Notes under the pieces: generated by a model | Told to the model about the DNA's origin: nothing | Seen by the model: only the letters and a program-made list of their open reading frames with translations | Database searches by the model: none | Assembly: GCA_017499595.2 (NCBI GenBank) | Contig: CM039007.1 | Location: 124,001-188,000, forward strand | From: Psilocybe cubensis | Lineage: Eukaryota | DNA length: 64,000 nt | Direction of reading: 5' to 3' | Shown here: one piece after another, positions 1-21,609 of the stretch | Layout: each line of letters starts with the position of its first letter | How positions within the stretch are numbered: the stretch's first letter is position 1 | Program-made: the position numbers and the translations under genes

Positions 1-834
1 TGGGTTTCCCCGTGGGCGGTGAAAACGCGGAGCCGTGCTTTCCCGTCAACGCGGATCCGTGCTTCCCCGAGGTGGGGACGGATGTCCGTTCAGCCGCCTT
101 TCCCTTGCCCTTGGGATTGTTTTCTTGATTTCTTGGAGGCCCAGAGGTGGATGAACTTGCGCCCTCCTTAGCTTCTTTCCTCTGATTGTTTAGCCGGAGT
201 ACCTCTTGTTGGTATTCAGGCAGAACCACCTGGTGGGAAGGACGCAAATCAGATATAATCCACAGCAATAAAAAAACATACCTTGTTCCAAAATTCTCTT
301 GCTTGCGATTCAACGGTAACAAAGGCAACTTGCCACTCATCGCCTTCAGCAAATCCGTCCCTCCACCAATATCCCCAGCTCTTGGTCTGATTTAAAATTT
401 CATCATCTTCCCATGCTGACCAGCTTTGATTTAGAGATTCAAATAGAACAGCTCGATGGTGGGGAGTTCGGTTCAAAACGGCATGTACGCTCTGATTGAG
501 AATTTCTGATATAAAAAATGGAATATCGACTTGGAATCCATTGACATAGCAGTATCCGAGTACTCTCAGCAGTATAGCCTATCGAGCAGTTCTCAATGCA
601 AGATATAATAGTTCAAAATTACTGTCTTACCACCTCTAGGTCAAGCAAATACATCCATTTTTGGCGACGCACGGAGGAAACAGAGTCTCCGTTTGCAATG
701 AACAAACGGTATCCGGCACGGATCCGTGCACCACAAATATGGACATGAACTTTGGCCAGAGCACGTCGCTCATCATAGGTAAGGAGATGATGTTCGTCCT
801 CGACAGGAGGTTTACAAAGCCGCGGTAAGTGCAT
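1..834 (-). CDS. Hypothetical protein, probable KDZ-element accessory gene (3' end beyond window start)
   Basis: ORF pieces 619-903 and 249-476 join in frame through two 52-nt GT-AG introns (579-630, 230-281): MHLPRLCKPP...LLDLEV|AILLRVLGYC...REFWNK|VVLPEYQQEV... The frame stays open to position 1. Start codon is uncertain. Confidence 0.65.
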
Positions 835-878
835 GAATTCAACAAGATGAGATACAACAAGAATGTTCAAAGAACTGG

Positions 879-3800
879 TTAATCTGTAATTATAAATCTC
901 CACACGGACGGATACTCCGGGTTAATTTGACGGAAGACCTTATCCGCGGCCCGCCCCAGATCATTCCACATGGCAATCTGCTTTTGAGCATTTGCCCTGT
1001 GACCAACTAACCTGTCAGGAACAAAATCATGCCGTGCACGCCATGTCTTTGCCATATACACATAAAATCTGACAGTCCATTCCATTTCCTTTTTTGTCAA
1101 GGCCAGCTCCTCTTGCCATCTATTCCTCTGAGCTCGCGCGCGGAGCCAGTTTAGCCTAAAGACTAAGAAGCCCTTGAGAAAAAAATTAGAAATACAAATA
1201 GCAGTACTCACACTCATTAACGTATAATTGATTATCATTGTCCAGGCCCTGACGGGATCTCCAAATCCAACTTAGACGGTCCGAGCTTCCTCCGCGAATG
1301 TTCGGATCCGACACGGCATTACTATGCTTGCAATCATGGACTTGCAGAATGGGATATTGTTTCCGAATATTATCCTCGTCTCGCACGCCAGCAGATAAAT
1401 AGATCATCTTCTGACGGTTTGTGTTGTAGAGTCGCCGGTGCAATTTCCAGGAAGCATTCAAAAGCTTGACGCCATCCCAAGCACGAGTCCCCATATAGAC
1501 GGAGTCGGCGGTCCGAACCTGATATTTATACTGCCAAGAAAGCTGGATCAAGGCTGACCGGACCGCTTCCAGACAGTCCTCTGCGTGGCCATGTCTTATT
1601 TGAAGTTCAAGTTTGCGAAGCCCTTTTAAAATGAGGTTTGTTCCCGCGTCAAGGCCGTCAAAGAAATCTTGTTTGACGGCGGAGGGAAACGGAAGCGGCT
1701 GTCGTTCCGGATCCGCGCGGGTAATGTTGACATTTCCAAGATCAGGATCGTTGTTGTCACTGACTTCATAGTCAAGTATGGGAGCGATGTCCCCTTGAAT
1801 ATCCTCCAAGACATCTTCGCCCATGAAGGTCATAGCGGATCGACAGAAGGCTTCAACGCGGGTCCGCATGGAGCGACGTTTATTGACCAAGTCAAGTTTC
1901 TGCGCGGTGGAAGGATGCTTTCCGAGCTTTCTGACATGGTCCCTGAGCTCCAATCTAAAAACATGTTAAATTCTGTAGGATGCAATTGAAATAATCGTAC
2001 TGCGCTTGCTCCAGTTTTAAGCCGGATGATATCCATGCTGCCTTTCCAGTAGCACCATTAGATGTAAGTTCCATATTTGAAAGATGCAATTCAATTTCTT
2101 GGCGTCCAGCAGCCGTTTTCACTTTGCTTGCCATTACCTTGCCAACAGCGTCGGCCACACCTTGTTCTCGGTCCGCTTCTGCTTTTGAAATTTCATCTTC
2201 CCAAGTGTTGATGAGCCCGGAATCTTGTTGATCCGTGATACCCCTATAAAATCGGTCTGTGATTCCGGACTGTTCCCGTGCCCGTTTGAACTTTGCAGCA
2301 ATTGTTGCAGCCATATTAATGGTCTTCTTCCAGTTGGAATCCCCCATGTGGTCGTCCAAAACCTCTGCTCGATGGGCAGTGGTAGCGGAACGTGTACTCC
2401 GGGATGTGTCATTTAACACGGACCACAACGGCTCCAGGATTTCTCCGTCAATGATTCCCACACCCGGGACATAGGTGGATGCGTAGTTGTAAAGACATTC
2501 CGTCTTGTGCCCGTGGACGTGAAATAAACCAATTGCAAAAATCATTTTAACAGAAGGTGGCCAATGCATTTTTGTGGACTCTGAGAGACGCCTTGCCAAG
2601 TTAACGCAATATTGACAGTTTATATCGTAGATTTCCAAATGTTTTGTGATTCCCTGTGTGTTGGTAGTTTCCCTGGCCTGAGTCAAAGACCAATCCATGT
2701 GCATCTGCTTTTCACCTTTGTCAAAATCGACAACGCTGGATGGACAGAAGCATCCGTGCCTAGCGCAAGCGTGTGCCCCAATTCCACGTACTCTCTTACC
2801 CGGGCTGACTCTGTTTTCAGCTTTCTGGGCGTGGTAGTTATGACATGTTTGTTCCTGATATTTTTTGACACGGAAAGTAAGCATCCGCCGTAGAAGATTT
2901 TGACACGGAGCGTAAGCATCCGCCGTGAAAGATAAATCATGGTAGATAACGCACCCGTTTATAACGTGGAGCAAGAGAAATTGCTTCCTTAATGTGCTCC
3001 TTGTAAGGGCCCGGAGCAGTCATGTATCCTTCTCCAACGCTCAACCAAACATCGTCTCCCTCGTTTTTCTGATTGAGGTGATCTGCTTTGAAATTACCAT
3101 CTGCAACATAACTACGTATGTACAGATTGCTACTTGCTGTTAATTGCAGTCACCCTTGAAGAATAACTAAAACTTGCCTATCAGCATCATCAATCCAGGT
3201 ATCAGGTAGGTTTATTCCAGGCTGTGGACAGGCGGGGCAGAATAAGGCCAACTTCCCTCTCCTATCTTCAACTTCGGGATGATCCTCGGTCCGCGTCATT
3301 TGTGGTACAGGCGGACCATCTAATCCGCCGTGTCCCAGAGACGGGTCCGTTGACATTCCGACTTCTTGAGACGGACTATCAGATCCGCCGTCAATTGGAT
3401 CAGATACATTAATACCCATCCTCTCTGGTGATGAATCATGGCAATGACGATAGTAAGGGACCACCGCTTCTCTTGTATGCCCTTCTCCGTATTGTCGTCT
3501 CAGGACAAGGTCCCTGTATTCTCTACTAAGCCTTCTCAATTCACGATAGCGGTTCAGCACCTTTTTTGGAAACGCTGGCGAAGTCAGTCTTCGCAACTTT
3601 TGGTAATACTGATAAGCCGACGTTTTGCACTCGAGGTTGTCCATCCGAAAGTCCTCAAGGACCTCAACTGTGAACACAGTTTGAACGTTTTCAAAGCTGG
3701 CTGCAAATAATCCCATCTCCAGATACTGTAAATCGATAGACGGAAGGCGGACGGACCGGCATGTGCATGTTCGCACGGGCAGATAATGGACTCCGGAGGT

Positions 3801-4762
3801 GTGCACAATTGCCTTGAAAGGAATTCCATTGTTGTCTGCTGCCTTTGGACGAGGTTGGTCCAGATAGGTTGTATCGACTTCCTCGAATAGATCATCGTCT
3901 TCATCGTCTCCATCGTCCAGCTCAACCAAATGGGGTACCTCCGGGTCCGCCAGAAGCTGAGCCGTAAAGGATTCTTGGTCATTGCTCGCAGGAAGCGGAT
4001 CCAGGTCCAATCCGTGTTCATCTTCAAAGACGGGCGAATTGTTTCCGCCGTGCCCATGACTCCCGGATGAATTGTTTCCGCCGTCCCATCCTAGGTGGCT
4101 CGGATCCGTGGGATAAGGACAACGTTTCCCATTATGACCCAAATACAACTTGACACCCACTTCCCACAGAGCTCCCGGACGGAAATATAGACCCGTCCAC
4201 TTCTCAACGCGGTGGAAAGGTGTAAATTGATGGTTTCTTCGCAGGCATTCAGAACACAAAATTCTAGAGCCAAAGCATTGGCAACATCTCCACACTCCAG
4301 ACATTCCTTGACATTGCTGACACTGTCCATTCAGATCCGGATCCGGGGCTTCTCCTCCAATCATTGTTCCAAGATACACCTCTCGTTTCGGGAGCCATTC
4401 CCTCAGGTAATCATTTTGAGACTGGATAGGTAAAGTCATCCTGATCATTCTACTGAAAACATGTTAAAACATACCTTTCCTCCCGTTCTGTCGTCATCTA
4501 GCTGTCTCAGGTTATCAAGTACCTGCTGATCAGTTAGATCTCCCGGATAATGAGGTATTTCTTCTTCCAGAATGTTGTGTTCATGGTTTTGGAAAGAGTA
4601 AGTCGTTGTTTGAGGGAGGTTTGTTGATGATGATTCTGCAGGAAGTTTGTGGATCCTCGGCCGCCCTCTCTTTCGTTTCTTGGCCCCACTAGACCAGGAG
4701 GCCTCCCGAACATTGGGAAACTCCTCATCCGATCCCCTATCAGGTACTTTCTTGAAGCCCAT
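879..4762 (-). CDS. CxC2-domain KDZ (Kyakuja-Dileera-Zisupton) transposase, ~1195 aa
   Basis: Six exons (4762-4475, 4421-3178, 3129-2955, 2854-2001, 1954-1212, 1162-879) sum to 3588 nt in frame; intron 3130-3177 is GC-AG. Motifs: Cys/His knuckle CQQC..WRCCQC..CSEC..H..PFHRVEKW; CxC2-type HTSGVH..CTC..GLFAAS..VFT; LALFCPACPQPGINLP; catalytic-region motifs ADGNFK, CARHGCF, KGEKQ, YDINCQY, FHVHGH, DGEILEPLW; C-terminal WLRARAQRNRWQEE. Confidence 0.93.
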
Positions 4763-5641
4763 GGATGTTGGAAACAAAGAGTCTGACAGCCTGTGAGCGC
4801 AGATCTAAATGTAGTATAACATGTTTATTTCTGTAGATAAATTTCCCTCAATTATGCCGTTTTAAAGAGGAGAAAAATAGCTTTCATATGACTTATCTTG
4901 CAGCATATTTGGATGAGTGAGTGAAATGTTATGAACAAAACTTAATCCAGAGATGCACAAAATGGACGTGATCCCATCATAAATGTACAATATGATGCAG
5001 AACGACCCTTTCAGAACCACACTTTGGAGTGTTTTTGAAATATCTTTTCACTGGCTGGCCCCTCATTCCTCCGGCGTATATCATATGAAAGATATTTTTA
5101 ATAGCTACCGAATGACATTTTTTGTAGAATGTGAATCCTCGTATTTAAGGAGATATTCTCAATATACTAGAAAATGTGTCAAAATGAGCTCACTGGGATC
5201 ATTATATTTTTTGAAAAAAATTATGCATTTGAATACCTCTCATGGTCTCTGAGATGACTGCCGTTTTGGGTTTCACAAGTTTTGGGTGAGAAGACGTGAA
5301 TTTGCATTTTGTGTTTCTGTATCTTTACAGCCATCTGACAAGAATTTAAAACCTTGTAAAATTATCTTTATATAAAGCGCTAAATGTTTACAAAATTCCA
5401 TGTTTATTGATTGAATGCAGAGGGAACTATTGCAAAATCATGAGGTCAATGTATGTGACAGCGACCAGCATGCTTTGATCATCGTGGCCGACGATGAAGC
5501 GGGATTACCTGATTGGGAAAAATATGACATCACATCATTTATTTAGTATGATCGGAAGCTTATTTTATCTCCGTATGACGTGAGATTTGACCAGATCACA
5601 CAGATACTCATCGATAAGCTACTTGTTACATCACTGCAATT

Positions 5642-7952
5642 ATGCCCACCAATGCATCCCCCGACGCGGATCCGCTTCCTTCTACCGCAAATGCCACAAC
5701 CCACAACGGACCCAGAAACGGACAGACGGCGGAGGGTGACTTTCCGCCGGAAGAATCAAATATTTGGACAACAAAGGAAATGCGCGTGTTGAAAAAGCAT
5801 GTACAGCCCTACAAAGATACATCAAAGTCATCCAAAGCAGACTACATACAGAACACTGTCATACCTGAGCTGCAAGCTACATGGGATCACAGATACTCTA
5901 GACGTGCTAGGAAGGAAGATAAGCAACTACACAAAGAATGGAAGGTGAAGAAGCATGTGAGCTCGTTGTTTCTTTGAAAATTTTGTTACACACATAAACC
6001 ATCACAATAGCGAATATTTAATTGGTTTAGAAACCATGCGTCAAATCGAATTGGTGTAAAATTGGAAGGATTGAACTCCCGTATAACCTTTCAGACGGTA
6101 TTCCGTGAGGAGAAGTCGGCAGAGATTGACTCCGAGGTTGCGCTTCTATCAGGGAATGCTGCTCGTGGAAGTAAAGATTGGATGAAGTTTTATCAACAAG
6201 GACGTAAGCAGGTTGAGGCCAGATTGACTCAGGAGGAGCGGGACAGGTTCATGGAGATCCTCGAGGAATGGAATAAGAAAGGTGTTTCAAAATCAATGAA
6301 GGCAAAGTGAGTCGGTGGAACTTGTTTCCGCCGTCAATCTGACATCTGCAGGACTGCTGCCAGGCAAGGCAGAAAAATACTTCGACAAATGGAGAAACTT
6401 AAGTGGCAGAGAATGGGTATGAGGTCCATTACCTTTGAGGGGCATTATGATATTGAGGGTAAAATCGAATACTCAATGTAAGTGTTAAACACGGCATGAA
6501 CAAGTTCCGCCGTGAATGCTTACGGCGGAAACTTTATCCGCCGTAAACACCCTACGGCGGATAAAGTTTCCGCCGTAAGCATTCGCGGCGGAATAATTTG
6601 GCCCGTATTAATGTTGACTGATGGGCATTGAAGGACCCAGACAAGCGATCTAGCACTCGACGATGTCAGAATTCCTTCCTTTGGGCAACTCTTTCCATCC
6701 GAGTTGGCCGCTTTTCGCAGAGCGTTTGTTCAATACCTCGTCCACATTTCAGAAATAGAGAAGGGTGTGGCCAATCCAGCACTGCCAGATGCATCGTTTC
6801 ATGAAAAATCCCTCAAGTTTAGCAGCAATGGATTTCCAATAGTACCTAGTCCTATCTATGGCTCAACTGGGAGAGAAGTCGCTTATGCACAAAAGTCAAT
6901 TATTAGAATTTACATGAACAAGGTTTATGGTGTGTAATTTGTCTATGTCCTCAACAAACTTGCTAACTATGTATACAGCTTTAGCCAAGGACAGGCCTGG
7001 TTCAAGTGTTCCTTGGGATGCTCTTGAAAGGCGTTCTGCAGAAATGATTGATCCAGAGTATTGGCCAAGTTCAATCCCCGTGACGGATCCGAGCCGGCTC
7101 CGCCTGGAGTCAACCTCTGCAATTCTCAAGCTATGGAGGGACCGTCAAGCCCAAGGAGACATCCCCTTTAAATTTTCAAAGGTTTTTGGAAATGGCTATG
7201 ATATTATGGAACCTCTCTATCCGTCCAACTTGTTTGACGGCCTAGAAGCCCACCCGATACCTCCACCTCCTGCAGCAATAACCAAACGTCGCCTGAGGCA
7301 AAAAGCTATACGACTTCAAACCCAATCTTCAAGCGACTCTGAATCATCCAATCTGTCAGAGTTTGATAATGGACGGGGCAGTCCGGCATCCGCGATGCCA
7401 CGCACTACTGCCAGATTTGAAGTCACGCCAGAGACGGATGAGACTCCTACCGACGCACCTTCAAGATCTAGCGAGCCACCCTCTCTACCAAGTAGATCCA
7501 GCCCAACAATTGTCAATCCATCATCCAGCCCAACTCCAGAGGTTGAGGAGGCGCCTCCCAAGCCAGCTAGAAAGATTATGCCAAGAAAAAGAACAAAGCC
7601 ATATGTCGGAACGGCGGAAATGGACGGACCCGATGAAGAGAGTTCTGTACCGGCCCCAGTTAAGCCAAAACCAACTAGAAGGATTCAACCTAGGAAAAAA
7701 ACAAAGCCCTACTCAGATCCACTTGACACAGTGGAAGAAAGTGGAGTTCAGACAGGAACAACCCAAGACACGGATAATACACGGGCCGGCAGGGATGTGA
7801 CTTGTGATGCCTTTGTGGAGACAGTAACAAGTCCAGATACGGATGAAACACGGGCCCGCAGGAATGTGACTTCGGATGCCTTAGCACTTCAGGAAGCAAG
7901 TCTGCTTGTTGTAGCAGGTAAAAGACAAAGAAAAAAAACTTTGAAAGCCTAG
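5642..7952 (+). CDS. Hypothetical nuclear protein with homeodomain-like (RIFNWFRNH) and HMG-box-like segments, ~668 aa; probable KDZ accessory gene
   Basis: Five exons (5642-5956, 6011-6306, 6352-6477, 6634-6929, 6979-7952) total 2007 nt in frame with GT-AG introns. It has a WFxNH motif, a LTQEERDRFMEILEEWNK segment, a VPW...DPSRL...LWRDRQ..PFKF block, and an S/P/T-rich tail with basic NLS-like clusters. Confidence 0.8.
6505..6593. repeat. Nested inverted repeat (41-bp arms, 1 mismatch, 7-nt loop) inside intron 3 of the 5642-7952 gene
   Basis: 6505-6545 TTCCGCCGTGAATGCTTACGGCGGAAACTTTATCCGCCGTA is the reverse complement of 6553-6593 except for one base. Each arm is itself built of alternating TCCGCCGT/ACGGCGGA units. 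Confidence 0.95.
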
Positions 7953-8217
7953 CTGCTGAAGTAGATTCATAATACCTATTGAATGTGATGCTTTTCATTC
8001 TTATCTTGATGTTTCTCAAACATGTTTTCACACAAAATCAAAACAGAAAGCGGGTTCATTAAAAATCATCAAGTGCTACTTTTTGGGAGAGATATAAAAC
8101 AGATGAGCACATGAGAGTAAAAACTATATACAGTCCAAATATTAAAAATTGTACAATGCAATCTATGAGACAAGGCAAAAAAGGAGACCAAAAAAAGTTA
8201 CAAAGATTTGAAATACA

Positions 8218-10795
8218 CTACTTTTTTTGGGCCTTGGGTTTTTTGGGCGAGCGCGATGCTTCAGCCAGAGTCGTTTCCGCCTTTCGCTTCCGTCCAGCCC
8301 TTGTCTTTGTGGCTATGTTCGACGCGGGCAGCGTGGACGCCACGATCTCAACATCCTCCTCCACAATTTCAACCTCGTCGCTGTCCGAGGGATCAGACAA
8401 CTCCGATGAGTGTCCATTCCCGGATGGCCCAGCCTTGGAGGATGGCTTAGCCTTTGACAATGGCTTAGCCTTTGAGGATGGGCCGGCCTTTGACGATGAC
8501 GATGGCGCGGCCTTTGACGATGGTGCACCCTTTGACAACGGTGCGGCCTTTGACGTCGAACTTCGAGGACGTGGAGCTGGGAGAGGGGGTGGTGGAGACA
8601 GGGAAAGGACGGGTGGTACCGGTGGGAGCGAGGGTCGGCCAGCTGGGGGGGGCGAAGGCGCTTCTGGAGTCGAACCGGGCAAGAATAGCTCTGTTGGTGG
8701 CGCAGACACGGCAGGGAAGACGGGTGCGGGTGGAGGTGGGGGTGGGGAAGGGAGGACAGGTGCTGGCGGTGGTGGAGGAGGGGAAGGGAGAATGGGTGCT
8801 GCTGGAGGTGGAGGTGGGGAAGGGAGGGGTGCTGGCGGTGGTGGTGGGCTGGGGGATTGTGGCGCAGAGGTGGGTTCACGGGTCCGCGACGGACCCGATT
8901 CTTGTTCGACCTCCGTCTTGGAGGGTTCTGCTGCCTGTTTGGGGGCGGGATTCCTTTGTTCATCCTGCTCCAGCAAAACCCCGACCACGTACTGAACGTC
9001 CTGGATCGCCTGCTTGATGTTGTTGAACATCGTGACGGAAAGCGAAGTGTTTCCTGCCACTTGTTCTTTTGCCGTGGTCCACTCGGCCTTCAGCTCTTGG
9101 AAGCTGTCCTCGACGGTCTTCATCCTCTTCTCCACCGCCAAGTTTGTCTCGGCGAACGTTGCAATCCGTGCGTTTATCGCCGTCATGGACGCGGAAAGGC
9201 CATCCATCCGTTCCATCAGTCGGCCTTGTCGCTCAAACAGCTGCACAAGCAGCTCTCCCACATCCTCGGGGAACGACCCTTCCCCGGCCTTCCCCTTCGC
9301 CGGAACATCCTCTCCCTCCTCCAACTTCAACACCTCCCCGTAACTTCCCAGCGGCGTCGAGAGGTTGAATTGCCCGGCGACAGTGTTGCGTCCCGGGTAG
9401 AAACGTCCCGGGTAGAAACTGCAGTGAATCTTGCGAGACTTGCAAGACTCGCAAGATTGGTGCTTTACGGGGACGAGAGGCTCAGTGCCTGTCTCTCCCT
9501 TGACATGGCACGGCACCTTGAATTTGGTGCATCCCGTGCACCTTTCCACCATATCCACCATCCCCTCCGGCACCTGGCGCGCTTTCTCGGATCTCGACCG
9601 CGCCTTCCTGATGGGGGGGATATTGTCCTGGTTGGCGTCCTTCTTTGCAGACCGGGTGAGCATCTTCCGGGTGGGGGTGGTAGGCGGGGCCTCTTGGTCA
9701 TCGCCTTCGTCGTCCTCGTCGACGTCGGCGTCCGCGTCTTCGTCCGTGTGGCTTCCTATGATTGCTTTGCTCTTGAACTTCCCCTGCTTGGACTTCGCCA
9801 ATCTTTCCAGCTTCTCCCTGTACGCTGGGTGACCAGGCATGTTGGAGGCGGTGATGTGGGGAATGATTTCCCCCTTCCTTGTCCGTGGGCCCCTGTAGTC
9901 CGCTGGAGCCAACTGAATGGACTCCACGGGGTCCGCCGCTTTCCGTTTGCCCTTGTCTTTGTGGGCGTCTGTCACGGGTCCGTCTTCCACCGGGGGTTCG
10001 ACTGCCTTGCCCTTGCCCTTCTCGGCCCGTCTCTTCTCCGTCTCCTCCTTGTTCCTCTCCTCGTCTGTCTCCTGCTCCTGCTCCTGCTCCCTCTTCCTCC
10101 TCTCCTCCGCCTTCTGCCTCTCCTGCTCCCTGGTCTTCCTCTCCTGCTCCCTCTTCCTCCTCTCCTCCTTCCTCCTCTCCTCCACCTTCTGCTTCTCTTC
10201 CTCCCTCTTCCTCCTCTCCTCCTCCCTCTGCCTCTCCTCCTCCTCCTCCCTCTGCCTCTCCTCTTCCTCCTCCCTCTTCTTCTTCTCCTCCCTCTTCCTC
10301 CTCACCTCCCTCTTCCTCCTCTCCTCCACCCTCTGCCTCTCCTCCTCCTCTTGCTCCTCCTTCTCCCTCCTCTTCTCTTGCTCTTCCTCCTCCCTCCTCT
10401 TCCTCTGTGCCTCCTGGCCTTGCTGGTATGCCTTGAAATTTGCGACTTGATGATGCAAATTTGCCCAGTCGACCTCGAACCTTGCTACCTGCTTGCCGTC
10501 CTTGCCCTGGCTGGTCTTGTATGAATACACGACAGGGCTTGCGACATAATCCACGAGGCGGAAGTTGGCCGCGTCCCTGACGTGTTCTTGACACAGTGGA
10601 ACCTATTTGGATGAATTTTTTTTGTTCAGTAAGTCTTATGCTCAAGGGATATCGATTACTCACCAAGTCCCTGTAGAGCTGCTCCAACTGAGCGTTGAAC
10701 GCGCTTTCGCCATTGCGGTAGCACTCTGTAAAGGTTTTTTCCCAGTCAGCAAGGCGTTGGGCGAAGGTGGCGGTGGTGGAAGATGAAGAGGCCAT
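8218..10795 (-). CDS. Zn(2)-Cys(6)-like fungal zinc-cluster protein with E/R/K-rich helix, coiled coil and Pro-rich tail, ~838 aa
   Basis: Exon 10795-10664, a 61-nt GT-AG intron (10603-10663) and exon 10602-8218 join in frame. It contains CTGCTKFKVPC-x-CESCKSRKIHC (C-x2-C-x6-C...C-x2-C-x6-C), a long EEEERQR-type charged tract, a heptad-like segment LMERMDGLSASMTAINARIA and poly-Pro runs. Confidence 0.85.
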
Positions 10796-11099
10796 TGGGA
10801 AAGCGTTTTTTTTGGGGGGGAAGACGCGTTAATGGGTGAGGCACGGTAGAACGTGGGGTGGTGATCGTGGTTGGAGTTAGTCTAAAAAAAGTCTAAAAAA
10901 AAGCGGTCCCGCAAAACAAAACCATACACAAACATGTACAATCTGAGTCATGTGATTTCTTCACCAGATCCAGTTTGTGCAAAAGTTGCTAAGTTCGATA
11001 CACGGGTGAATCTATTTCCGTGTCATGGAGAATCCTCGGATAGTATTGTATTCCGTGAGATATATAAACAAGCCCACCCAGTTGCACTTTCTGGACTGT

Positions 11100-12529
11100 A
11101 TGTCCTCCTACAACTTTATTCCCACCTCTAGCAAAAATTCCCCCATTGACTACACCAGTCTCAACAATCTTACCAGGCTTCTCGAAAAACTGAAGGAACC
11201 TCCTCCCGTAAAACCTATAAAATGTAAGACTAATTGCATTAATTCAAGTAAATTTAAATTGATTTCTGAGCATCAGCAATGTCTTCAAATATTAGCAACT
11301 CTAAGGAAAGCAAACGCACAGCAAGGACGGATGACCTGGCTCCGCCGCCAATGCCAGTCATTCCAGATAACCTGGCTCCACCCCCTATGCCTGTTATTCC
11401 AGCTAACCTGGCTCCTCCCCCTATGCCAGTCATTTCATCTAACCTGGCTCCGCCCCCTATGCCAGTCATCCGGAAAGACCTGGCTCCGCCGCCAATGCCA
11501 GTAATTCCAGCTAACCTGGCTCCACCCCCTATGCCAGTAATTCCAGCTAACCTGGCTCCACCCCCTATGCCTGTTATTCCAGCTAACCTGGCTCCGCCCC
11601 CTATGCCAGTCATCCGGAAAGACCTGGCTCCGCCGCCAATGCCAGTAATTCCAGCTAGCCTGGCTCCGCCCCCTATGCCAGTCATCCGGAAAGACCTGGC
11701 TCCGCCGCCAATGCCAGTAATTCCAGCTAGCCTGGCTCCACCCCCTATGCCAGTCATTCCAGCTAACCTGGCTCCGCCGCCAATGCCAGTCATCCGGAAC
11801 GACACGGCTCCGCCGCCAATGCCTGTCATCCGGAACGACTTGGCTCCGCCGCCAATGCCAATCATTCCAAATAACCTAGCTCCTCCCCCTATGCCTGTCA
11901 TTCCACCTACCCTGGATCCTCCCCCTATGCCTGTTATTCCAGATACCCTGGATCCTCCACCTATGCCTGTCATCCGGGATGATGCGGCTCCGCCGTTGAT
12001 GGCAGCACATGTTTCATACACGTCTGTCGTCGACAAAATCATTATGGACTCTCGTCCAGCTATTTCCTCTGAGAGGAAGCAAGGTCGCTATTCTCCACCC
12101 CCTGAAGCATGCCACCTGCTCCTTCAAAACCCTTATTTTCGAACCTACGGCAGGTTTGATCCCATGGGCGGCTACCCCGGTTCGCCTCCCACCCAGTCTG
12201 ACATTGAGTTCGAGAATGTAACAGATCAGACGGCGTATTTTAACCCTCCTTTTCTATATGTATGTACTCAGATATTACCAAGCACTAGATACTGACAACT
12301 ATTTTAGAATTATACCGAGCAGCAGCTACGGGCAACATACGACCAAATAATTGACAGTTCCGTCGGCGACAGTAGTTATGACGGAAAGGTTACAACGTTC
12401 AAGAACCTCCGGCTGCATCAGCTGCAGTCAGAGATTCTGACTTATAATGCGCTGGAGGAAATTGACGCTGGGCTGGCAGGGATTGAATCGAGTTTGGAAA
12501 AGCATTTGTATACCGGTAGAGATGAATAA
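11100..12529 (+). CDS. Pro-rich tandem-repeat protein, ~442 aa; probable KDZ accessory gene
   Basis: Exons 11100-11223, 11277-12259 and 12308-12529 total 1329 nt in frame. TATATAAA lies at ~11061. It has 18 copies of xxLAPPPMPVI(P/R) followed by a unique C-terminal domain. Confidence 0.75.
11330..12000 (+). repeat. 36-bp coding minisatellite, ~18.5 copies
   Basis: Unit of type AACCTGGCTCCGCCGCCAATGCCAGTCATTCCAGCT repeated in frame; variants include AN/KD/AS/ND-LAPPPMPVIP/R. Confidence 0.97.
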
Positions 12530-12972
12530 ATTATTTTTGGAGCCCTTGTGCTCATTGACTTGCAATACCCCATAAATAACCCTCCCTCTCTGGGAAGACA
12601 CGGGTCAAATGGGTCCGTCTGACAGCACAACACGGGTCAAAACGGATCCGTCTGCTTGCAATACACGGGATGTAGATGGACCCGTCCGGTTCATTTGCGG
12701 CCCGTGTTTTTCCCGTGCAGCCCGACACGCGGATCCCGCATGCCACCCGGCGGCTCCATTTAGTGCTAAATGGCACGTCATGTACGCTATGATTTGCCAG
12801 GATAAATCACACGTACATCACGCTAATCTCCTAATTAGGTAGCGGGAGTAAATCCACCGTGTCTCACGTAATATCCTTATTATTAAATCTTAGGTAATGT
12901 ACGTTATAAATAAACTGTCTTATGTGGGACGCATGGGTGCTCGCTGACAAGTGTGATCAGTTATGCTTATAA

Positions 12973-13529
12973 TCAACAATGAAATTGTTGTGAAACCGGC
13001 TCACCTTTCCAACTATTCAGCCCCGATATCTCTTCCTCCGTGAAGGGATAGGAAGAGTGCCATGGATCGAGTGACTGTATCTCTTCTTCAGTCGTGGGAT
13101 GGAATAAGGTGGCATCAGTGGACGATGCTGATAGTGGTGGATATGACGCTGAAATGGGTGTTCTATTGGACATATCTTGCTACTGTACGCAATTCAAAGA
13201 CTTACGATCAAATTTGGCAGTGGCGGAGCTTTCACCATCCAAACCTGATGACGACGAGGATACCGGTTTATAGGAGTCGGATGATACCGCCACCGTATTT
13301 GGATCACATTGGAATTGAGGCAGATATCCAAACCCGCTGTATTCCTGTCCCAGTAGTTGTTCCGAGAGTGATTCCGGTGCTACTATGGCATGAAGAGTCG
13401 ATCAACATCAAGCTTTTGTCCCTAAAATTGTCTGCAATGCTCACATTCTGCGTCAAACAGGGAATCAAAGGATCCTGGATGAAAAGTGTTCGAAGGGATA
13501 TCAAAGGATTCTTCTTGGTACTGGGCCAT
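12973..13529 (-). pseudogene. Small S/P-rich hypothetical gene with one in-frame TAG
   Basis: ATG at 13529 (MAQYQEESFDIP...), GT-AG intron 13380-13444, then an open frame to GTA CAG TAG CAA GAT ATG (stop at 13180-13182). The frame continues into ORF 12973-13173. Confidence 0.4.
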
Positions 13530-14967
13530 TGGGATATACACAAAGGAGGATGGTGCGATAGGAAGGAGAGAGAATAGTATGAGGGAAGGAACAGAATTTT
13601 TCCCTCAAAACATAGGAATCGAGTGGCGACACACACAAAAAAATCCCAGGCTCATTACCTAGTACCGAGTGTCGAGCTTCTGACTCACTATTTAGTCGTG
13701 TATCAGCGCTGCTGCTGTCAAAATCAACTTTTCTCCCACACATACACACAATGAGGCAATATACCTCCTCTTATTTTGCGCCACTCGGATTTGGGGCACC
13801 ACAATGGAACCTCATGGCGAGCAACATAGTCCTTCTTTTAACCTCGAGGCCGAGTGACCTGTCTGTTATCTATTGTGCTCTGACATTTCTTGCCAACAGA
13901 TTATGTGTACAACAGATAACATAAATGAAGTGTTATTACATCGTGAGTGTGTATCCTAGGTTTGTTGAGTCCCATCGATTACTATCACAAGTGCTCAGAC
14001 ACTATGCCTAAACAAGAAGAAAAAGATTTCTTCTCGGCAATGTTGTTCCATTGTTCTTCTCTCATTTGTGAAAAAGACCGGTGCTACCGATTGTCTCCTT
14101 GCCCACTCAAAGATACTAAAATCTTATTAGACAATGTGCTCTGTATCACTATGTCTGAGGAAAGAACAGGGTGTAGAAAGTGTACCACCAGACAGCTCCC
14201 CAGGCTAGGTCAGTCCGTCTTATCAGATTTCTCGGGTTGACACGGGATCAGGTGTCAGACGGGGCTTATAAGAACGTCATACAGGATGTTCGTTCAAGAG
14301 ACACACTTTTTTGCGTGCCAGTCAGCATGTAACAGCCGTGTCAACAGCTTCACAATTTCCTCGTATATTATTTAAACATAGATTGGATGCCGTCATTGTA
14401 TTCACGTATGTGCGTCTATCAGATATTCTGAACGAGGGCCTCTTCACGTAGAGTGCTCTCACACAACACCCTCTGTGCTATTAATATTACACATGACTCC
14501 GTTTGATCCGTCCTCCGCTATATGTTAGGCGTTGAGATGCCCCACGGAGGTCTTGTTGGTTGAAGCGTCTGTTTACATGAGTAAGTGCAAGACACATAGT
14601 CGAGTTGTCTGAACGTGTGCGCTGAACATGTGCCTGTGCAGGCGCAATACTTTAACTTTAACTAAATGCCTGTGCCGGCCGATTTACATAATTCAATTTT
14701 GGTTCTCAGCACGGGTTAATCCGATTCGGATTCTTTCGACAGGGGCAAATACATCGTTAGCCACGTCCTTCATATCCAGCAACGACACTCGACTCACTGG
14801 AACATTTGGATTGGGGCATCGGATTACATAGTTACCTTGACCCCTACCAATTGTGCTCATGCTTGTCATGCAGACCAACGACACTGAAGGAAGCTTAATG
14901 GTCGTGTCGCTGCCTATTTGCCTTTCCATGACACGTCGTGTTCACTTCATCCTTCGTCACACCGGGT

Positions 14968-15462
14968 TTAGGGGCAGGCGACAACAGTCATGGTTCTCCT
15001 TCTTGCGCTGAACAGTAACAGCAGCGCAGATGCGTCTGACCATAACCCACATCTCCGAGGACCATTCCGAGCAGGACACCATGGGAGTTTTGGAAAGTAA
15101 CGGTGCCAGTAGTAGCCACTGTACCGCAGATATCCTGGATCCAAGGATTTTTGCCCAAGGCACTGACATCTGTTTAAGGGATAGACGCACTTCTTCGGGT
15201 GACGTGGCAAGAGAGGATGAGGACGCCCAGAATAATGAAGTATCTTCGTAAATTTTGCTGTGATTTTACAGTTATAAGCGCCCGTTTGTCATGCAGCGCG
15301 TCAGCTAGGGAAGGGTGCTGTGCTGTGCCTGTGAACGTACTCTTTAATGAAAAGCTTTAGGAACAGCCGGTAAACATCTCGCACCAGTGACGCACATCTT
15401 CCGTGATATCAATTTATACCATTTCCGACCCTTCCTGTCGACTTCACTCCTCTCCTCCTTGT
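14968..15462 (+). pseudogene. Degenerate duplicate of the last exon and 3' flank of the 19244-20664 membrane-protein gene
   Basis: Colinear with 20349-20863 through shared blocks AGCAGCGCAGATGC, CCATAACCCACATCTCCGA, ATATCCTGGATCCAA, GACGTGGCAAG, GTCAGCTAGGGAA, AAACATCTCGCACCAGTG and CCCTTCCTGTCGA. It has indels and no upstream exons. Confidence 0.85.
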
Positions 15463-15791
15463 ACAGCTGTATACACAGACCAACGCCTACAATGTTTAGT
15501 TGGTTTAGAGAGGATTGATTCTTGGTAAGATTTTACCAGTTGTTAAATAACTTCTTCGAAGTTCAAGTATCAAGTATAGAGTAAGTTGGTCAGTTATATG
15601 CAGTGTAGTTAATCAATTTTCAAATGAATTCCAAGAGTTCTCTTGCAAGTGTGAGCGTACTACGACAACAGAGCACAGAAATCAATTTTTTGGCTCTTTA
15701 CTCCTTTTCACCAGGAATTACTTGCTTTTTCGTCCGCTTTTGTACACAGCTCACACCTGTCCTGCTATTTTAGATCTTTCTGATGTCGAGA

Positions 15792-15982
15792 ACGACTTCT
15801 CCTCTGTTATTCTCCATCCCCGTGTAGACCGCATCGCTTACTTTTCATGAAAACATAACTGAAAATAGATTGTTGCTGAACAATGCCGGGGAACCCAAAC
15901 AGACCGGGCGGTTATGATGATCATGAGGAAAAGTGAGCGATGCAGTCCACACGGGGATGGAGAACAACGGAGAAGAAGTCGT
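15792..15982. repeat. Imperfect inverted repeat (55-bp arms, 81-nt spacer)
   Basis: 15792-15846 versus the reverse complement of 15928-15982 match at 49/55 positions; all six differences are transitions. Confidence 0.9.
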
Positions 15983-16093
15983 GTGCTGCATACGGCCTAT
16001 AACGATGGCATCGGTAAGTTGGGGAACAGTCCTGTTCAAGAACGTAAAGCCAAGATATATGAAAGCGCCCCTTGCACAGGAGTGGATGACAAA

Positions 16094-16718
16094 AAGAAAG
16101 GCTGGAGACAGTATGAGACACAGGCGTGGCCACTTAGGACATTCCAATCTCTAATGATACATGATATTTACCCCAACAATATTTTTTTTCAGCGGGGAAG
16201 TCCTCATTCTCACGGTACGATTCAGAATTGGCAGAGCATGCGTACCCTTTCTAGCTGTATAGCTAATTAATTTGATGAATCCAAGCACATGCTCATGTTT
16301 AAGCTTATGTTTACGAGATTACCAAACATCCCTCAACAGAGCCTCCCGGTGCGTAGAATCAGAAAGGGCCCAATACCTTGTCCTGCATAAATCATTATGG
16401 TGCAAGAAAGGCTGGAGCGAAAATATGAAACACAGGCGTGGTCACCTAGGACTGATACATGTTATTTGCCCCAGCGATAATTTTTCAGGCGGGGAAGTCC
16501 TCATTCTCACGGTACGATTCAGAATTGGCAGAGCATGCGTACCCTTTCTACGGGATGTTGTTGTATAGCTAATTAATTTGATGAATCGTAGCACATGCTT
16601 ATGTTTAAGAATATGTTGTACGAGATTACCAAACAGCGATCAACAGAGCCTTCCAGTGCGTAGAAGCAGAAGGGCCTCAATACCTTCCTTCCTTCACCTA
16701 CATAGGTCATCATGGTGC
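16094..16718. repeat. Two-copy tandem duplication of ~310 bp
   Basis: Units start with AAGAAAGGCTGGAG at 16094 and 16404. They share the identical core GCGGGGAAGTCCTCATTCTCACGGTACGATTCAGAATTGGCAGAGCATGCGTACCCTTTCTA and end in ATGGTGC. Confidence 0.92.
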
Positions 16719-17040
16719 ATGCAGTTGTGTCACGGACGACAAGAACATATCATGTCCTGCATCCGGCTCACTGGTTAGCGTCTATAATGAGTTCAAGTTG
16801 GTTGATGCCAAGTTGATGCGACCGATATAACTTGCACCAGTCGATGATAGCGGACTTTGAGAATGTTGTTCATTAATATGCTGTTTTCTCGAACACAAGA
16901 GTACATCATGATCAACTTCACTGGCTAAAGATGGGTCTACCACTAAAAAAATAATCAAGGACGACAACTATAAAGGGAGACTCATGGATCACCACTAGAG
17001 CAGGCTTTCAGGAAACAACAATTCAACAGCCTTGTTTCCG

Positions 17041-17539
17041 ATGCACTTCAACTCTCTAGTACTGTTCACCATCGCTGCAGTATCCGCTATTGCTGGCGCA
17101 GTTCCTGCATCGGTGAGGCAACCTTCTTACCTCACCACTCATCATCTCACAATATATGCAGGCGAACAATGGCGGCATCATGTCGCTCGAAGAAATGAAA
17201 GCATTCGTCAATACATTACCTCCCGACGAAGTGACTCTAGTCGGGGACCCGTTTGGTACCCTCTCGTCGCGCGCTGCACTGTCGGTCACCGTCACATTCT
17301 GCAGCACCCGGTCGGCGGACATATGCACCGGTCCGTGCACAGTCAGGACGCTCCCGGGTGGTACATGTATCGATACGCCAAACACCAACTGCCTCGCCGC
17401 CACGGGTCAGGTTGTATTCTGCGGTAGTCCTGCGTGTGGTGGAATCTGCAACTTGCTCAGCACGTGCGCGGGGCACCTGGAAAACAATTTCTGCTTTACG
17501 CCTGCAACCAAGTCGATTGGTGTTCCCGCTGGATCTTAG
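17041..17539 (+). CDS. Small secreted cysteine-rich protein (10 Cys), ~149 aa
   Basis: Signal peptide MHFNSLVLFTIAAVSAIAGAVP; GT-AG intron 17113-17161; a pro-region ending ..LSSR; then a domain with 10 Cys. TATAAA at ~16969. Confidence 0.88.
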
Positions 17540-19243
17540 GAAATTTTAATGTTTAGTGGGTACAGGTTTTCTAGACCGCGGATAGCCTCACATGCCATTG
17601 TTTGCAGTGTTACAAACCGTATGTCAACAAGAAATTGCTTCAAATGAGAGAAAAAAGACAAAAATAAAGGACTAGCACTGAGTAACGGGAAGCCATTGAT
17701 GTCAAAGATATTATTGTAAAAAAGAGTAAAAAATGTAGAGAGGCCTTGATAGTCAATGCTCTCGGTGTTAATGTCCTCTTCCCACGCTAAGTTTTGTAGA
17801 TGTGTCTCCGACGCCTGTTTTTGAGAATGCTTTTGGCGCGCTTCCATCCGGCTGACAGTTCCTGCGCAAGCTTCAGTACCATATGTTGTATACTCTACTT
17901 ATCCACGAGGTCCACCAGTCCCTGTGTTCACGTCATCAATACCAGCAGCAGCAGCAGCAGCAGCACCATTCATATGGTTACCAGCAGACAAAGCTGAAGC
18001 TGAAAAATAAGATAGCGCATCGTGTACGGGAATGAGGTGTCCGTAGCAGTCGTAAACGTGTGTGTAGCGTGGAAAGAGCAAGGGTTCAGTGGCGCTGGAG
18101 AGCTTGAGGTCTGAAACTAGGAAAGGCGCAGCACGTGCATCATTCCACGCGTCCGTGATGATGTCATCGCTCGCTTACCAGTGCGCGTCATAGCATAAAT
18201 GCTTATGCCTAGGAATGTATAGCGACGTTACTGGTCACTTTAGTTATTATATATCTTGTAACTATTTTGATTATATGACCAAATATCGGACAATCATCAT
18301 GGAACTAGAAGATGGAAAAAAAGATCATATCATGATGTATACCAGATGGCCGTGCAGATGGACATTGCTTGCTACTTGATACTAACATAGGGTTCAGATT
18401 ACAACTCCAAATTTATCCGACAGGATACAATCACCGTTGTCATTAAGCATATATCAAGAATACACGACGGAAGCCGAGATGGACGTCCAAAACATAACAA
18501 ATGCCAAAAATGCAGTGACCGAGAGTTTATAGTCATGAATGACATGTGTCTTGCTATCGTGGATGTAGACATGTTATATCGCCACGAGCCTTCTCCCTCC
18601 CCAGACAGCAATCATACACTTTTCAGCCACGTATTTTTAGTATATTATGATCATTAACAAAACCAATAGGTTTCCGTGTCATTTGTAAAGTCATGGATAG
18701 TGATACATCAAAGTTCGGTCTCCTCGTCTCCAGGACAGAACTTCCGTTGTTAAACATGGGAAGTCTATTGAGAAAAACACCTTCGTTGCTTTATCCGTAC
18801 GATACGCAACAAAGACGGCCTTGTCCTCTCCGCCGCGAACCGCTTAGTGAGGCTGTCAGCAGAGACAGCATTCCATCAAGACAATCAAGCCTTCTCCTGG
18901 CTCCATAACGTTGACGTTGAATAGATTAGGAGGTATTGCAGGAGTAAGAGGTCATATGCGTACAATTCCTTGTTATAACTGCAATTGGTTTCCTAGAGAC
19001 TCATTTTGTGGAGATCGTCGCCAATGACTTTATTCCAGGGATTCCGATCAGAACAGGTTACCCTTCAAGCTTCAACTTCATCAACGGCGTTCACCGCTTC
19101 CCAACGGAAGATCCTCTTGTGCGAATTGAGGTGTGTAGATCTTTATGAACACAAATATACGTTTATTAATGCTATAAAACGGCGCCAGCACCAAAGGCCA
19201 TCCTCATCTATCCAACCGCAGTAACTGCCCACTACACTGAACT

Positions 19244-20664
19244 ATGTCCATTTCTGATATGCCCACCCCAGCTATCGAGGAGGACTACATAATTAGTGGA
19301 AACTTAAACGGGCCAATGTTGTACAATTCCTTGATGGGTACGTATTACAACACGCTTCAATTCCGAGTTCGATGCAATCCAATTGATCCACATTCTATAG
19401 GGGTGTATACCGTAGTTTATGGAAGCACAATTTACGTGTATAGTATGTTTAATTTCGAAAGCACGGTGAAGTAAACCAATCAACAAATGTCTCTTCAGTG
19501 TCAAGGGCAGCGTCAAATACACGCCGATGTATAGTTTTGACCACAATCTCGGTGCTGTACCTTCTCGCACTCTGCAATCTAATACTCAATTGGTACTTCC
19601 TCGACCAATCGCTTGTAAAAGATGGCGATACCCGCGATACCACGTTTGCCTCGATGCTATCTACACCGTTATGGTTCAATGCAATGTTTGCGTTTTTACA
19701 AAATATGTCCATTGTGATTTCAGACGGACTCTTGGTAGGTTATCTACAATATCTCCATGATGAAAAATCCTAACAACGGGTTGTCTATAGATTTGGCGAT
19801 GTTATTATGTGTGGGGACGATGTATAAAAGTTACAAGCATTCTATGTCTTCTTCTAGTCACCGAATTCAGTATGTGCACTTCCTGCTTGAAAATAAGAAT
19901 TAAGCTGACATAAAACCTTTTCAGTTCTCTCCGTCACGGACACAGTCTTCTACGGGCTAAGCAGTACCTACTCCAGCATCTCAAACGCCGCCCTATCTGA
20001 AAACATCCTCATCGCACTAACTTTCATCTCAATGGGTACCACCGTCTCCACAACCACTCTCATCGGATACAAAATTCACACCACCTCATTCCCCTCTACC
20101 TCGCCCTTACCCTTCAAGAGCGCCCGGAAACCAATATACACACGCTACGCGCGAATCGTGTCCACCATCGCCGAGTCCTCCGCGGTATACTCTCTCGTTG
20201 TCGTGCTATACGCAGTGACAGTCGTCGTCCCAGCGTTCTACTCCATAACATCCGTCTTTACCGAGGTATCGTACTACATCCAGGCGGTTCTCCTTATTAT
20301 ACCGGTATGTATTGGCCTACTCGAATTTGTACTCTGAGCATCTCGATCTTAGGGGCTGGCGACAACAATCATGGTCCTCCGGCTTGCGCTCAATAGTACG
20401 AGCAGCGCAGATGCCTCAGACACCATAACCCACATCTCCGAAATAAACTTCGACCATTCTGAGCAAGACACCATCGGATACTCGGATTATAATAGCAGCG
20501 GTGCCAGCAGCAGCAACCGTTGTACCTCTAATATCCTGGATCCAATAACTTTCTCCCAAAGCGCATGCACCGGCAGTTTCGATAGACACGCCCACTCGTT
20601 TGACGTGGCAAGGCAGGATGAGGACGCACATGATAGTGAGGTAGCATCACAAAGTTGGCTGTGA
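19244..20664 (+). CDS. Multi-pass (7TM-like) membrane protein of an expanded agaric family
   Basis: Hydrophobic exons joined by short GT-AG introns. Family-type motifs ISDGLL|IWRCYYVW, TTTLIGYKI, IAESSAVYS and GLATTIMVLRLAL; stop TGA at 20662-20664. Confidence 0.82.
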
Positions 20665-21609
20665 TACACGGTTCTAGGTGCCCATTTTTCATGCGGTACG
20701 TCAGCTAGGGAAAGGTGGTGTGCAGTTTCTGTGGGCGGACTGTTCCAAGAAATATGTTGAGGAGCTGACCGCAAACATCTCGCACCAGTGTGACAGGCAT
20801 CTTCTGTAATACTAGGATATATCATCTCCCTCCCTTCCTGTCGAATTCACCTTCTCCTCCTTGCCCAACAATGCGCACAAACTGACACCTATCATACCAC
20901 ACAATGACGCGCACAAATTCAAAACATGCGCAATTCCCTGCTGCACGATGTCCCTCAACGAGTCTTATCCGCCCAAAGTCAAACCGCTTAAGGTTATCTG
21001 CGATCTAACACATACTTTAGCGCCCGTTGATACGCAGTGCAGCTCGCTAACCACGGAAACCGCGCACGCACAAGTCCATTTTCCACGCTTCACATAACGC
21101 CGGAACATCAATACACCACCGACCTCCCCTACCGACACCGATATTCCTCGCTGCCGGTTCCATTACTCATCTGTCTCTAATCTCCATTCTATTTAATATA
21201 CTTCGTCGTAATATATTCACAATTTTTCTTCATTTTAGAATCAGACTTTCGCATATAGCAGTGGCTTTTCATTTCACCCACACATTCCGAGCAGACATAT
21301 TAGATATAATTCAAGCTTACAAAACTTACATGCTCCTTTTGTAGAGCCAGTGCTATCTCGAGAGACAGATGAGTGATAATAATAACGATTTACAGTCTTG
21401 TGTATTGATGAAATGTCATTTCCATCACACTACTCATTTCACTTTAAGGTTTTAAAACAAATAAAAGCAGAGAACCAAACATGGTGTATTGTTAATTATT
21501 GATGAGACACGCTTTAATATTCACTTTATCTATAACCTCCTCCGCATATCTGTCTTTAAAATCCGTTCCCAGAATCGATTTCCCATTACGTCTGATTGTC
21601 GAGAGTCGA

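Follow-up and report, generated by a model that had tools for sequence, protein, structure and literature searches.

The first 12,926 nucleotides (nt) of a 64,000-nt stretch of the Psilocybe cubensis genome (contig CM039007.1, positions 124,001 to 188,000, assembly GCA_017499595.2; hereafter the window) very probably represent most of a full-length, seemingly autonomous, high-copy cut-and-paste transposon of the KDZ superfamily, which, on comparison of its one visible end, looks like a member of the Kyakuja clade. Within the window, the element comprises a transposase gene (T), two companion genes (A and B), a repeat-rich open reading frame (ORF; C) and, at the left edge, the start of a further gene (E). 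T, A, B, C, the start of E, and all spacers form one repeated unit of ≈17 to 24 copy-equivalents, and its right-hand boundary, at 12,926, is a sharp one with a Kyakuja-type terminus. This copy has open frames of 1195, 668, and 838 amino acids for T, A, and B, respectively. A-type genes stand beside related transposases in other fungi as well, along with cysteine-cluster ORFs of the B type at fewer loci and E-type genes at a minority of them.

The extent of the repeated unit was determined by aligning the reads or contigs of four public sequencing runs to window positions 1 to 20,000 at ≥85% likeness. For run X13, which derives from another strain, depth was taken from raw reads with both orientations summed, in 18 bins over 1 to 12,673; one low-complexity bin (depth 229) was set aside from the mean and range given here. 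Depth across the element averages 527 (range 397–635) in genes and in the T–A, A–B, and B–C spacers alike, and bins rich in spacer sequence match the genes, with depths of 575 at 4670 to 5336, 445 at 8005 to 8671, and 488 at 10,673 to 11,339. The last four bins, in flanking sequence at 17,343 to 20,000, have a mean depth of 25.1, approximately the single-copy expectation from ≈1.6 billion letters and a genome that we take to be ≈46 Mb. The ratio of element to flank is thus ≈21 in this run (T ≈24, A ≈20, B ≈17, C ≈21), and contig word depths give ratios of ≈14 in run X1 and ≈23 in run X7. An earlier note on this DNA had held the accessory genes to be part of the element and not host sequence; at ≈17 to 21 times the flank depth, none of them is single-copy, and the continuity of this depth through genes and spacers bears the proposal out.

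Approximately 90% of the aligned read bases fall within the element, and contigs bridge several of its parts. An X7 contig with a word depth of 296 (≈25 times the flank) spans 4255 to 6534, joining the 5′ end of T, the spacer, and three exons of A, and a diverged contig of single depth in X1 and X7 spans 10,638 to 11,605, joining the 5′ end of B, the spacer, and the beginning of C. Because an X1 contig (word depth 204) reaches 1276 nt to the left of window position 1, the unit is at least 14.2 kb long, in keeping with the earlier estimate of more than 13 kb. Nearly half of the aligned reads (24,631 of 54,216, or 45%) are ≥99% like this copy, and a further 17,722 are 95 to 99% like it, so that the earlier description of the element as young is a fair one.

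The right end is defined by loose read ends. In X13, 664 reads break off behind 12,926 and 167 at 12,927, and their continuations disagree among themselves (agreement 0.35 and 0.41, respectively). That a total of 831 reads leave into unlike sequences at this point fits the terminus of a dispersed element, and it places the end at 12,926 instead of near 12,950, the position suggested earlier. The only other X13 loose ends shown within the element lie at 10,087, in low-complexity sequence, and at 12,608, at a subterminal variant (agreement 0.99); read alignment gave no strongly supported heterogeneous break within 1 to 12,926. The end reads ...AAACTGTCTTATGTG, also given as ...CTGTCTTATGTG or ...CTTATGTG, and is followed by GGACGCA. 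Its reverse complement, CACATAAGACAGT, agrees with the 5′ end of Kyakuja-1_LB (CACATATGACAGT) at 12 of 13 bases and with the 5′ ends of Kyakuja-1_AuPo and Kyakuja-1_SuBr at 11 of 13, among the published ends compared. Table S1 of PMC12730594, in the part compared, includes 14 Kyakuja consensus sequences of 9.3 to 22.7 kb, four of which start with CACATA, and no reverse complements of the published 5′ ends were found in that part; section 3.2.1 of the same paper describes 5′-CA..TG-3′ ends and 7-bp duplications for the clade.

By its sequence, T is a member of the KDZ transposase superfamily. The CxC2 match (PF18803, E 1.5e-21) scores 77 bits against a cut-off of 27, and the KDZ match (PF18758, E 1.2e-37) reaches 130.1 bits on a single exon and 140.6 on the database gene model P0004 (cut-off 26.6), on which profile positions 6 to 217 of 217 are covered. 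The spliced reading frame (exons 4762–4475, 4421–3178, 3129–2955, 2854–2001, 1954–1212, and 1162–879) is open. A model with five introns of 42 to 100 nt that uses the GT-AG intron 3153 to 3112 yields 1197 amino acids; placing a GC-AG intron at 3177 to 3130 instead of this second intron yields 1195 and restores ADSNLYIRSYVADGNFK, which matches paralogue P0005. Homology to other KDZ proteins extends as far as the stop at 879. The candidate catalytic motifs ADGNFK (3104–3087), YDINCQY (2629–2609), and DGEILE (2449–2432), all on the minus strand, lie where the earlier note had recognized them, and all seven aligned homologues share the D of ADGNF, the D of YDINCQ, and the E of GEILE. Its reading of T as an intact-looking, six-exon CxC2-KDZ transposase is therefore upheld. 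Reads and contigs from X13, X7, and X1 contain an extra 25-nt unit of the tandem repeat in the third intron of T (2863–2933).

Public gene model P0004 (1691 amino acids) skips the stop of T (879–882) through small introns and fuses T to E, and this fusion is likely an annotation artefact. In run X10, a large mixed sample, the bin containing the KDZ core (2002–2668) has a word depth of 65.7 versus 0.3 to 9 elsewhere, and the single-copy flank is uncovered; other KDZ relatives at ≥85% likeness are present in that sample.

The genes beyond T are arranged as the earlier note described: T and A are divergent and 880 nt apart, A and B converge, and B and C diverge. The product of A differs from JR316_0010149 at 5 of 668 residues; its family counts 280 representatives at E ≤0.001, of which 46 reach E ≤1e-10. 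No Pfam family was found for A at E ≤0.01, searches of PDB sequences returned nothing significant, and a metagenome scan with the A alignment yielded no relative. The AlphaFold2 model, built from an alignment of 44 homologues, has a predicted local distance difference test (pLDDT) score above 90 for residues ≈40 to 440, followed by a disordered tail. For residues 293 to 431, the top two VIA matches are GTF2I domains (Z 7.0 and 6.4, with 89 residues aligned in targets 90 and 114 residues long), and other searches match GTF2I weakly (Foldseek probability ≤0.77 with E ≥0.9; profile match E 0.18–0.23). Residues 122 to 196 match the HMG boxes of capicua, BAF57, and SSRP1 (Z 5.0–5.3, root-mean-square deviation 2.4–2.8 over 59–63 residues), and 2 of 40 long A homologues match HMG_box_2 weakly (E 2e-4 and 4e-4). 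Residues 37 to 122 match MATalpha2, HNF1, and a telomere-binding homeodomain (Z 4.7–4.9), with unrelated helical proteins reaching equal Z; A also contains an NWFRNH motif, comparable to the WFxNxR-type third helix of homeodomains. We regard these matches to homeodomain, HMG box, and GTF2I as resemblances and not as memberships. In the palindrome of the third A intron (6505–6593), joints that skip 63 nt occur in X13 and X1.

The product of B is 99% identical to JR316_0002971, a hypothetical protein of P. cubensis. Zn2Cys6 clusters have the spacing CX2CX6C-loop-CX2CX6C with a loop of 5 to 12 residues. The cluster in B, CX2CX6CX18CX2CX6C at 9421 to 9540, has this cysteine spacing but a loop of 18 residues, outside that range, and helices are predicted, with low confidence, at residues 490 to 594. 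Gal4-type factors have a cluster-then-coiled-coil layout, which the cluster and predicted helices of B resemble. A predicted B homodimer (residues 395–600, two copies, zinc) scored 0.13 against a mark of 0.32, and the Atlas search with a B fragment gave nothing usable (best score 0.84). Neither B nor C matched a Pfam family at E ≤0.01. The proline-rich, 12-amino acid repeat noted previously in ORF C was recovered as a 36-nt tandem unit; the opposite strand is likewise open at 11,254 to 12,087, and the coding strand of C is uncertain. As the earlier note had observed for this arm, no TET/JBP gene was seen: 52 of the 53 ORFs of ≥80 amino acids within 1 to 12,926 gave no Tet_JBP match at E ≤0.01, the remaining low-complexity ORF being unscanned. 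The P. cubensis paralogues P0008, P0003, P0002, and P0006 are truncated and carry many R-to-W/C/Q and E-to-K changes, a C-to-T decay pattern.

A metagenome scan with the transposase alignment retrieved 80 environmental loci (403 kb in total), all of which we turned to the plus strand of T; their transposases are 30 to 55% identical. Of the 15 loci with ≥1500 nt of upstream sequence, 13 (≈11 of 12 distinct elements) have an A-type gene immediately upstream of T, on the other strand. The six-cysteine pattern of B occurs in four ORFs in the 403 kb, all upstream of A (loci L010, L041, L057, and L079), seven loci having ≥6 kb upstream. The cluster loops of these ORFs in the B position are 8, 12, 14, and 14 residues long. 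The pattern was absent from reversed loci and from five rounds of triplet shuffling, and in the window it occurs only in B. Recurrence of A- and B-type genes beside related transposases in other fungi suggests regular companions, and by this comparison they look like members of the transposon lineage rather than captured cargo. In this respect the earlier word cargo calls for correction.

A Tet_JBP match is present in 5 of 12 long loci, and in four of these it lies on the other strand, downstream of T. Locus L066 has the order A, T, E, TET, and then, at 11,404, an exact copy of the terminal 14-mer of the window, AACTGTCTTATGTG; its similarity to the window stops exactly at this 14-mer, and a CHAT-domain gene comes next. 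The end of L066 is on the opposite side of T from the end in the window, which makes inverted ends of 13 to 14 nt probable in this subgroup, by analogy with one locus. When six long loci were searched for long-range inverted repeats, no terminal pair was convincing.

The element is also set apart by its short repeats. All 16 occurrences of the octamer ACGGCGGA in the window, where 1.06 would be expected, fall at 1676 to 11,996, and it ranks first among element-enriched 8-mers in a systematic count, followed by CGGATCCG and CGGACCCG. The palindrome CGG-N2-CCG occurs 22 times in the element, versus 2.1 ± 1.4 in dinucleotide shuffles (z 14.6), and four times in the remaining 51 kb; its sites span 28 to 12,643, with a consensus near ACGGRYCCGT. 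Taken together, CGG-N2-CCG palindromes and CGGCGG repeats are ≈7- to 10-fold over-represented in the element and nearly absent from the other 51 kb. Two environmental loci have palindromes of other spacing: L066 contains 22 CGG-N5-CCG sites versus 1.5 expected, with 22 of 23 sites falling within the inferred element and ending at its inferred end, and L019 contains 21 CGG-N1-CCG sites versus 1.5 expected. These sites are dispersed, as GTGCGGSCCGCAC over 244 to 11,843 in L019 and as CGG-N5-CCG over 856 to 10,830 in L066. Excesses of CGG-N3-CCG in L062 and of CGGCCG in L076 were set aside as tandem arrays, and 7 of 12 metagenome loci showed no palindrome excess. Zn2Cys6 dimers classically bind inverted CGG half-sites whose spacing is specific to the protein, and the likeness of such half-sites to the palindromes makes B a candidate binder. 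Similar motifs, ACGGGCCCGT, are present in subterminal parts of Pisolithus Kyakuja consensus sequences in the portion of PMC12730594 compared, which makes the transposase an equally good candidate.

We propose that the conserved D, D, and E residues of T would carry out the cutting and joining of the element and that A and B would act as element-encoded DNA-binding helpers. These helpers may recognize the short CGG-containing repeats, either in assembly of the transposition complex or in control of expression or silencing. The family appears to have amplified recently. By analogy with the single locus L066, the arm beyond the window probably ends ≈2.9 kb to the left and may hold a TET/JBP gene. 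A bolder proposal, which we consider improbable though worth stating, is that the lineage has its own sequence-specific recognition, in which B, perhaps with A, would form a dimer on CGG-Nn-CCG palindromes and so mark "self" DNA. Such proteins could bring in the transposase or shield the element from silencing, beside or in place of the TET/JBP enzyme of its relatives, and the palindrome spacing would be family-specific (N2 in P. cubensis, N5 in L066, and N1 in L019).

Several observations weigh against parts of this picture. The window does not reach the left end of the element, which puts the other terminus, the target-site duplication, and the total length out of view, and mobility is putative. 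No contig spans the entire unit, the A–B junction (8140–8218) rests on depth alone, and the depth of B is below that of T (397–445 versus 567–635 in X13). An X1 joint from 7522 to 12,388 (depth 36.5) represents a copy that lacks the 3′ end of A, B, and C, so not every copy is complete. In the part of the source compared, Kyakuja-1_LB and Kyakuja-2_LB are reported without terminal inverted repeats (Kojima 2025, PMC12730594), and the inverted ends suggested here derive from L066 alone. The regularity of the companions also has its gaps: 2 of the 15 testable loci (L076 and L077) have no A-type gene, only 14 of the 34 loci with ≥800 nt of downstream sequence have a relative of E following T on the same strand, and tblastn with B or C found no match in the 80 loci (the Atlas search likewise gave no relatives of C). 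Of the 22 CGG-N2-CCG palindromes, 20 lie inside coding exons, and their binder is only putative. For A, fold similarity is modest (Z 4.7–7.0), and Foldseek with its model returned nothing at E ≤0.001; the earlier label homeodomain/HMG-like consequently stands for A at the level of fold (Z 4.7–5.3 in VIA) and fails in Pfam and in Foldseek at this threshold. Similarly, the label Zn2Cys6-like holds for the cysteine pattern of B and fails for Pfam Zn_clus (PF00172), which matched only 14 residues (E 0.35; 11.5 bits, cut-off 21). For B, the AlphaFold2 model, built from three near-identical paralogues, is poor, with a mean pLDDT of 48.5 and values below 30 at the cysteine cluster.

The decay of paralogues raises the question of whether the family died or was silenced after a recent amplification, in which case this copy merely looks intact and its companions are passengers with no role in transposition. 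Among the JR316 paralogues, P0008 (720 amino acids) has deletions and R-to-W/C/Q changes and P0003 and P0002 are truncated, and at variant sites in X13, C>T plus G>A changes (423) outnumber A>G plus T>C changes (321). We nonetheless judge a dead family rather unlikely, given the large share of reads (45%) that are ≥99% like this copy and the open frames of T, A, and B over their 1195, 668, and 838 amino acids. Moreover, A-type genes have been kept beside T across transposases only 30 to 55% identical, which makes functionless passengers unlikely.

Two further explanations deny that the unit is a single mobile element. One would have a transposase-only element that lies beside unrelated repeated genes A, B, and C of similar copy number by chance, as the somewhat unequal depths of T (≈24-fold) and B (≈17-fold) and the scattered locus tags of the JR316 paralogues (B, 0009870 and 0010027; A, 0010149; T, 0009878) might suggest. 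The spacers, however, match the genes in depth, high-depth contigs bridge T and A, no strongly supported heterogeneous break lies inside 1 to 12,926, and the T–A arrangement recurs in 13 of 15 testable environmental loci; the protein lists, for their part, hold one representative per 90% cluster, which hides near-identical neighbors. Such a mosaic is therefore highly improbable. We assign a still slighter chance to the possibility that a host gene cluster with a domesticated, immobile transposase was duplicated segmentally or in tandem. Here the sight of a single end, with no target-site duplication to check, leaves some room, but reads past 12,926 lead into heterogeneous flanks (agreement 0.35), the terminus has its match in published Kyakuja ends, and the ≈21 copy-equivalents show graded divergence. 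The reading of the unit as a high-copy KDZ transposon is the one used in Table 1, which lists its features.

Table 1. Features of the KDZ element and its right flank in window coordinates.
Feature	Position	Strand	Basis or description
Transposon part inside window	1..12926		X13 depth 527 versus ≈25 in flank; element continues past left edge
Companion gene E, partial, downstream of T, running off left window edge	2..882	-	P0004 residues 1184–1428 map here
Transposase gene T, six exons, ≈1195 amino acids, CxC2 and KDZ	879..4762	-	Pfam matches; open spliced model; homology of C terminus
KDZ catalytic domain of T, spanning intron 2954–2855 and holding the D, D, and E motifs	2333..3107	-	PF18758
35-nt tandem repeat with ACGGCGGA motif, T intron 3	2863..2933		Repeat search; copy number varies
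CxC2 cysteine-cluster domain of T	3579..3812	-	PF18803, E 1.5e-21, residues 218–295 of ORF 3150–4463
Companion gene A, five exons, 668 amino acids	5642..7952	+	Gene model; AlphaFold2; fold matches; 280 family representatives
Palindrome with 41-nt arms, built of ACGGCGGA units, A intron 3	6505..6593		Arms 98% complementary; length varies among copies
Companion gene B, two exons, 838 amino acids	8218..10795	-	Long E/R/K-rich helix, cysteine cluster, further helices, proline-rich tail
ORF C, 338 amino acids, with 12-amino acid proline-rich repeat array at 11330–11973	11279..12295	+	17.9 copies of 36-nt unit
Subterminal short repeats ACACGGGTC..., GGACCCGT	12598..12720		Number varies among copies; loose ends at 12608 and 12623
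Terminal 14 nt AACTGTCTTATGTG, right end of element	12913..12926	+	Loose ends at 12926/12927; match to Kyakuja-1_LB 5′ end; same 14 nt in L066
Candidate 7-bp target-site duplication GGACGCA	12927..12933	+	Inferred from Kyakuja 7-bp duplications as described in PMC12730594
Flank, older repeat of another kind; this copy is inserted in it or next to it	12927..15341		X13 depth steps ≈550 to 254 to 158 to 75

On the far side of the terminus, 198 reads entering from the right of 12,926 share one left-hand consensus (agreement 0.88), so the flank is an older repeat, uninterrupted at other sites. Depth over it drops stepwise from ≈20-fold to 3-fold and is single-copy by ≈17 kb, and the part at 14,968 to 15,352 recurs 5.4 kb further on, at 20,349 to 20,752, with 75 to 85% identity. 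No Pfam match was found in the ORFs of this repeat (12,927–15,341), and Rfam gave 0 matches in 1 to 16,000. Elsewhere in the window, a tandem duplication of ≈300 nt (87–96% identity) lies at 16,184 to 16,686, with a 340-nt skip in some strains (40 reads in X13). At 40,331 to 40,618, at least 14 units of 18 nt lie inside ORFs on both strands (40,165–40,674, minus; 40,280–40,663, plus). Two 300-nt direct repeats, 51,726 to 52,025 and 53,791 to 54,090, are 100% identical with starts 2065 nt apart, and they may represent a small long terminal repeat-type or recently duplicated element.

Complete Kyakuja elements have been defined only recently, through their TET/JBP gene, and we found no paper, in the literature searched, on this element, on P. 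cubensis and KDZ, or on KDZ with HMG partners. P. cubensis is now bred and engineered for psilocybin, and a young family of ≈20 copies is a likely source of strain rearrangements and insertional mutations; the element might also find use in tagging. The recurring companions, with a divergent A-type gene, a B-type gene beyond it, and family-specific CGG palindromes, provide a testable hypothesis of how giant elements recognize or protect themselves.

Elements that encode a separate DNA-binding protein offer models for the putative action of A and B. En/Spm with TnpA is a two-protein DNA transposon, and VANC is an element-encoded protein that recognizes short motifs across its own element and counteracts silencing. 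As described in section 3.1.4 of PMC12730594, PIF/Harbinger elements pair their transposase with a separate conserved DNA-binding protein of the Myb/SANT type. PIF/Harbinger and En/Spm share with the P. cubensis element short repeated binding motifs within the element; they differ in their unrelated transposase superfamilies and DNA-binding folds, and binding by A and B is only putative. VANDAL21 with VANC in Arabidopsis, named in section 1 of the same paper, is a model for the dispersed CGG palindromes, although it is a plant MuDR-type element with an unrelated protein, and any effect on methylation here is conjectural.

The closest likeness is to the Kyakuja elements of Agaricomycetes, which, in the parts of PMC12730594 compared, have in common with this element a KDZ transposase, very large size (9.3–22.7 kb), the host group, a 5′ end of the form CACATA..CAGT, a 3′ end in ..TG, and subterminal arrays of short G/C-rich motifs. 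Relatives of the P. cubensis element also carry Tet_JBP, whereas the element itself has no TET/JBP gene in the 12.9 kb seen. A- and B-like companions are not mentioned in the main text of PMC12730594, and inverted ends are not reported in the parts compared, in contrast to the 13- to 14-nt inverted ends hinted at by L066; Psilocybe is absent from the text and from the part of Table S1 examined. The Cryptococcus elements KDZ1, KDZ2, KDZ3, and KDZx1 are likewise large KDZ elements (6.4–10.9 kb) with a CxC-type zinc domain and extra ORFs without recognizable domains, as far as PMC11343200 was compared. They differ in belonging to the Dileera or Zisupton clade, in their CxC1 or CxC4 domains and 8-bp duplications, in the long inverted ends of KDZ1 to KDZ3, in their low copy number, and in that their extra ORFs are uncharacterized. 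Mobility has been proven for the Cryptococcus elements (Huang et al. 2024 preprint, PMC11343200), and multi-gene KDZ elements of this kind can therefore jump.

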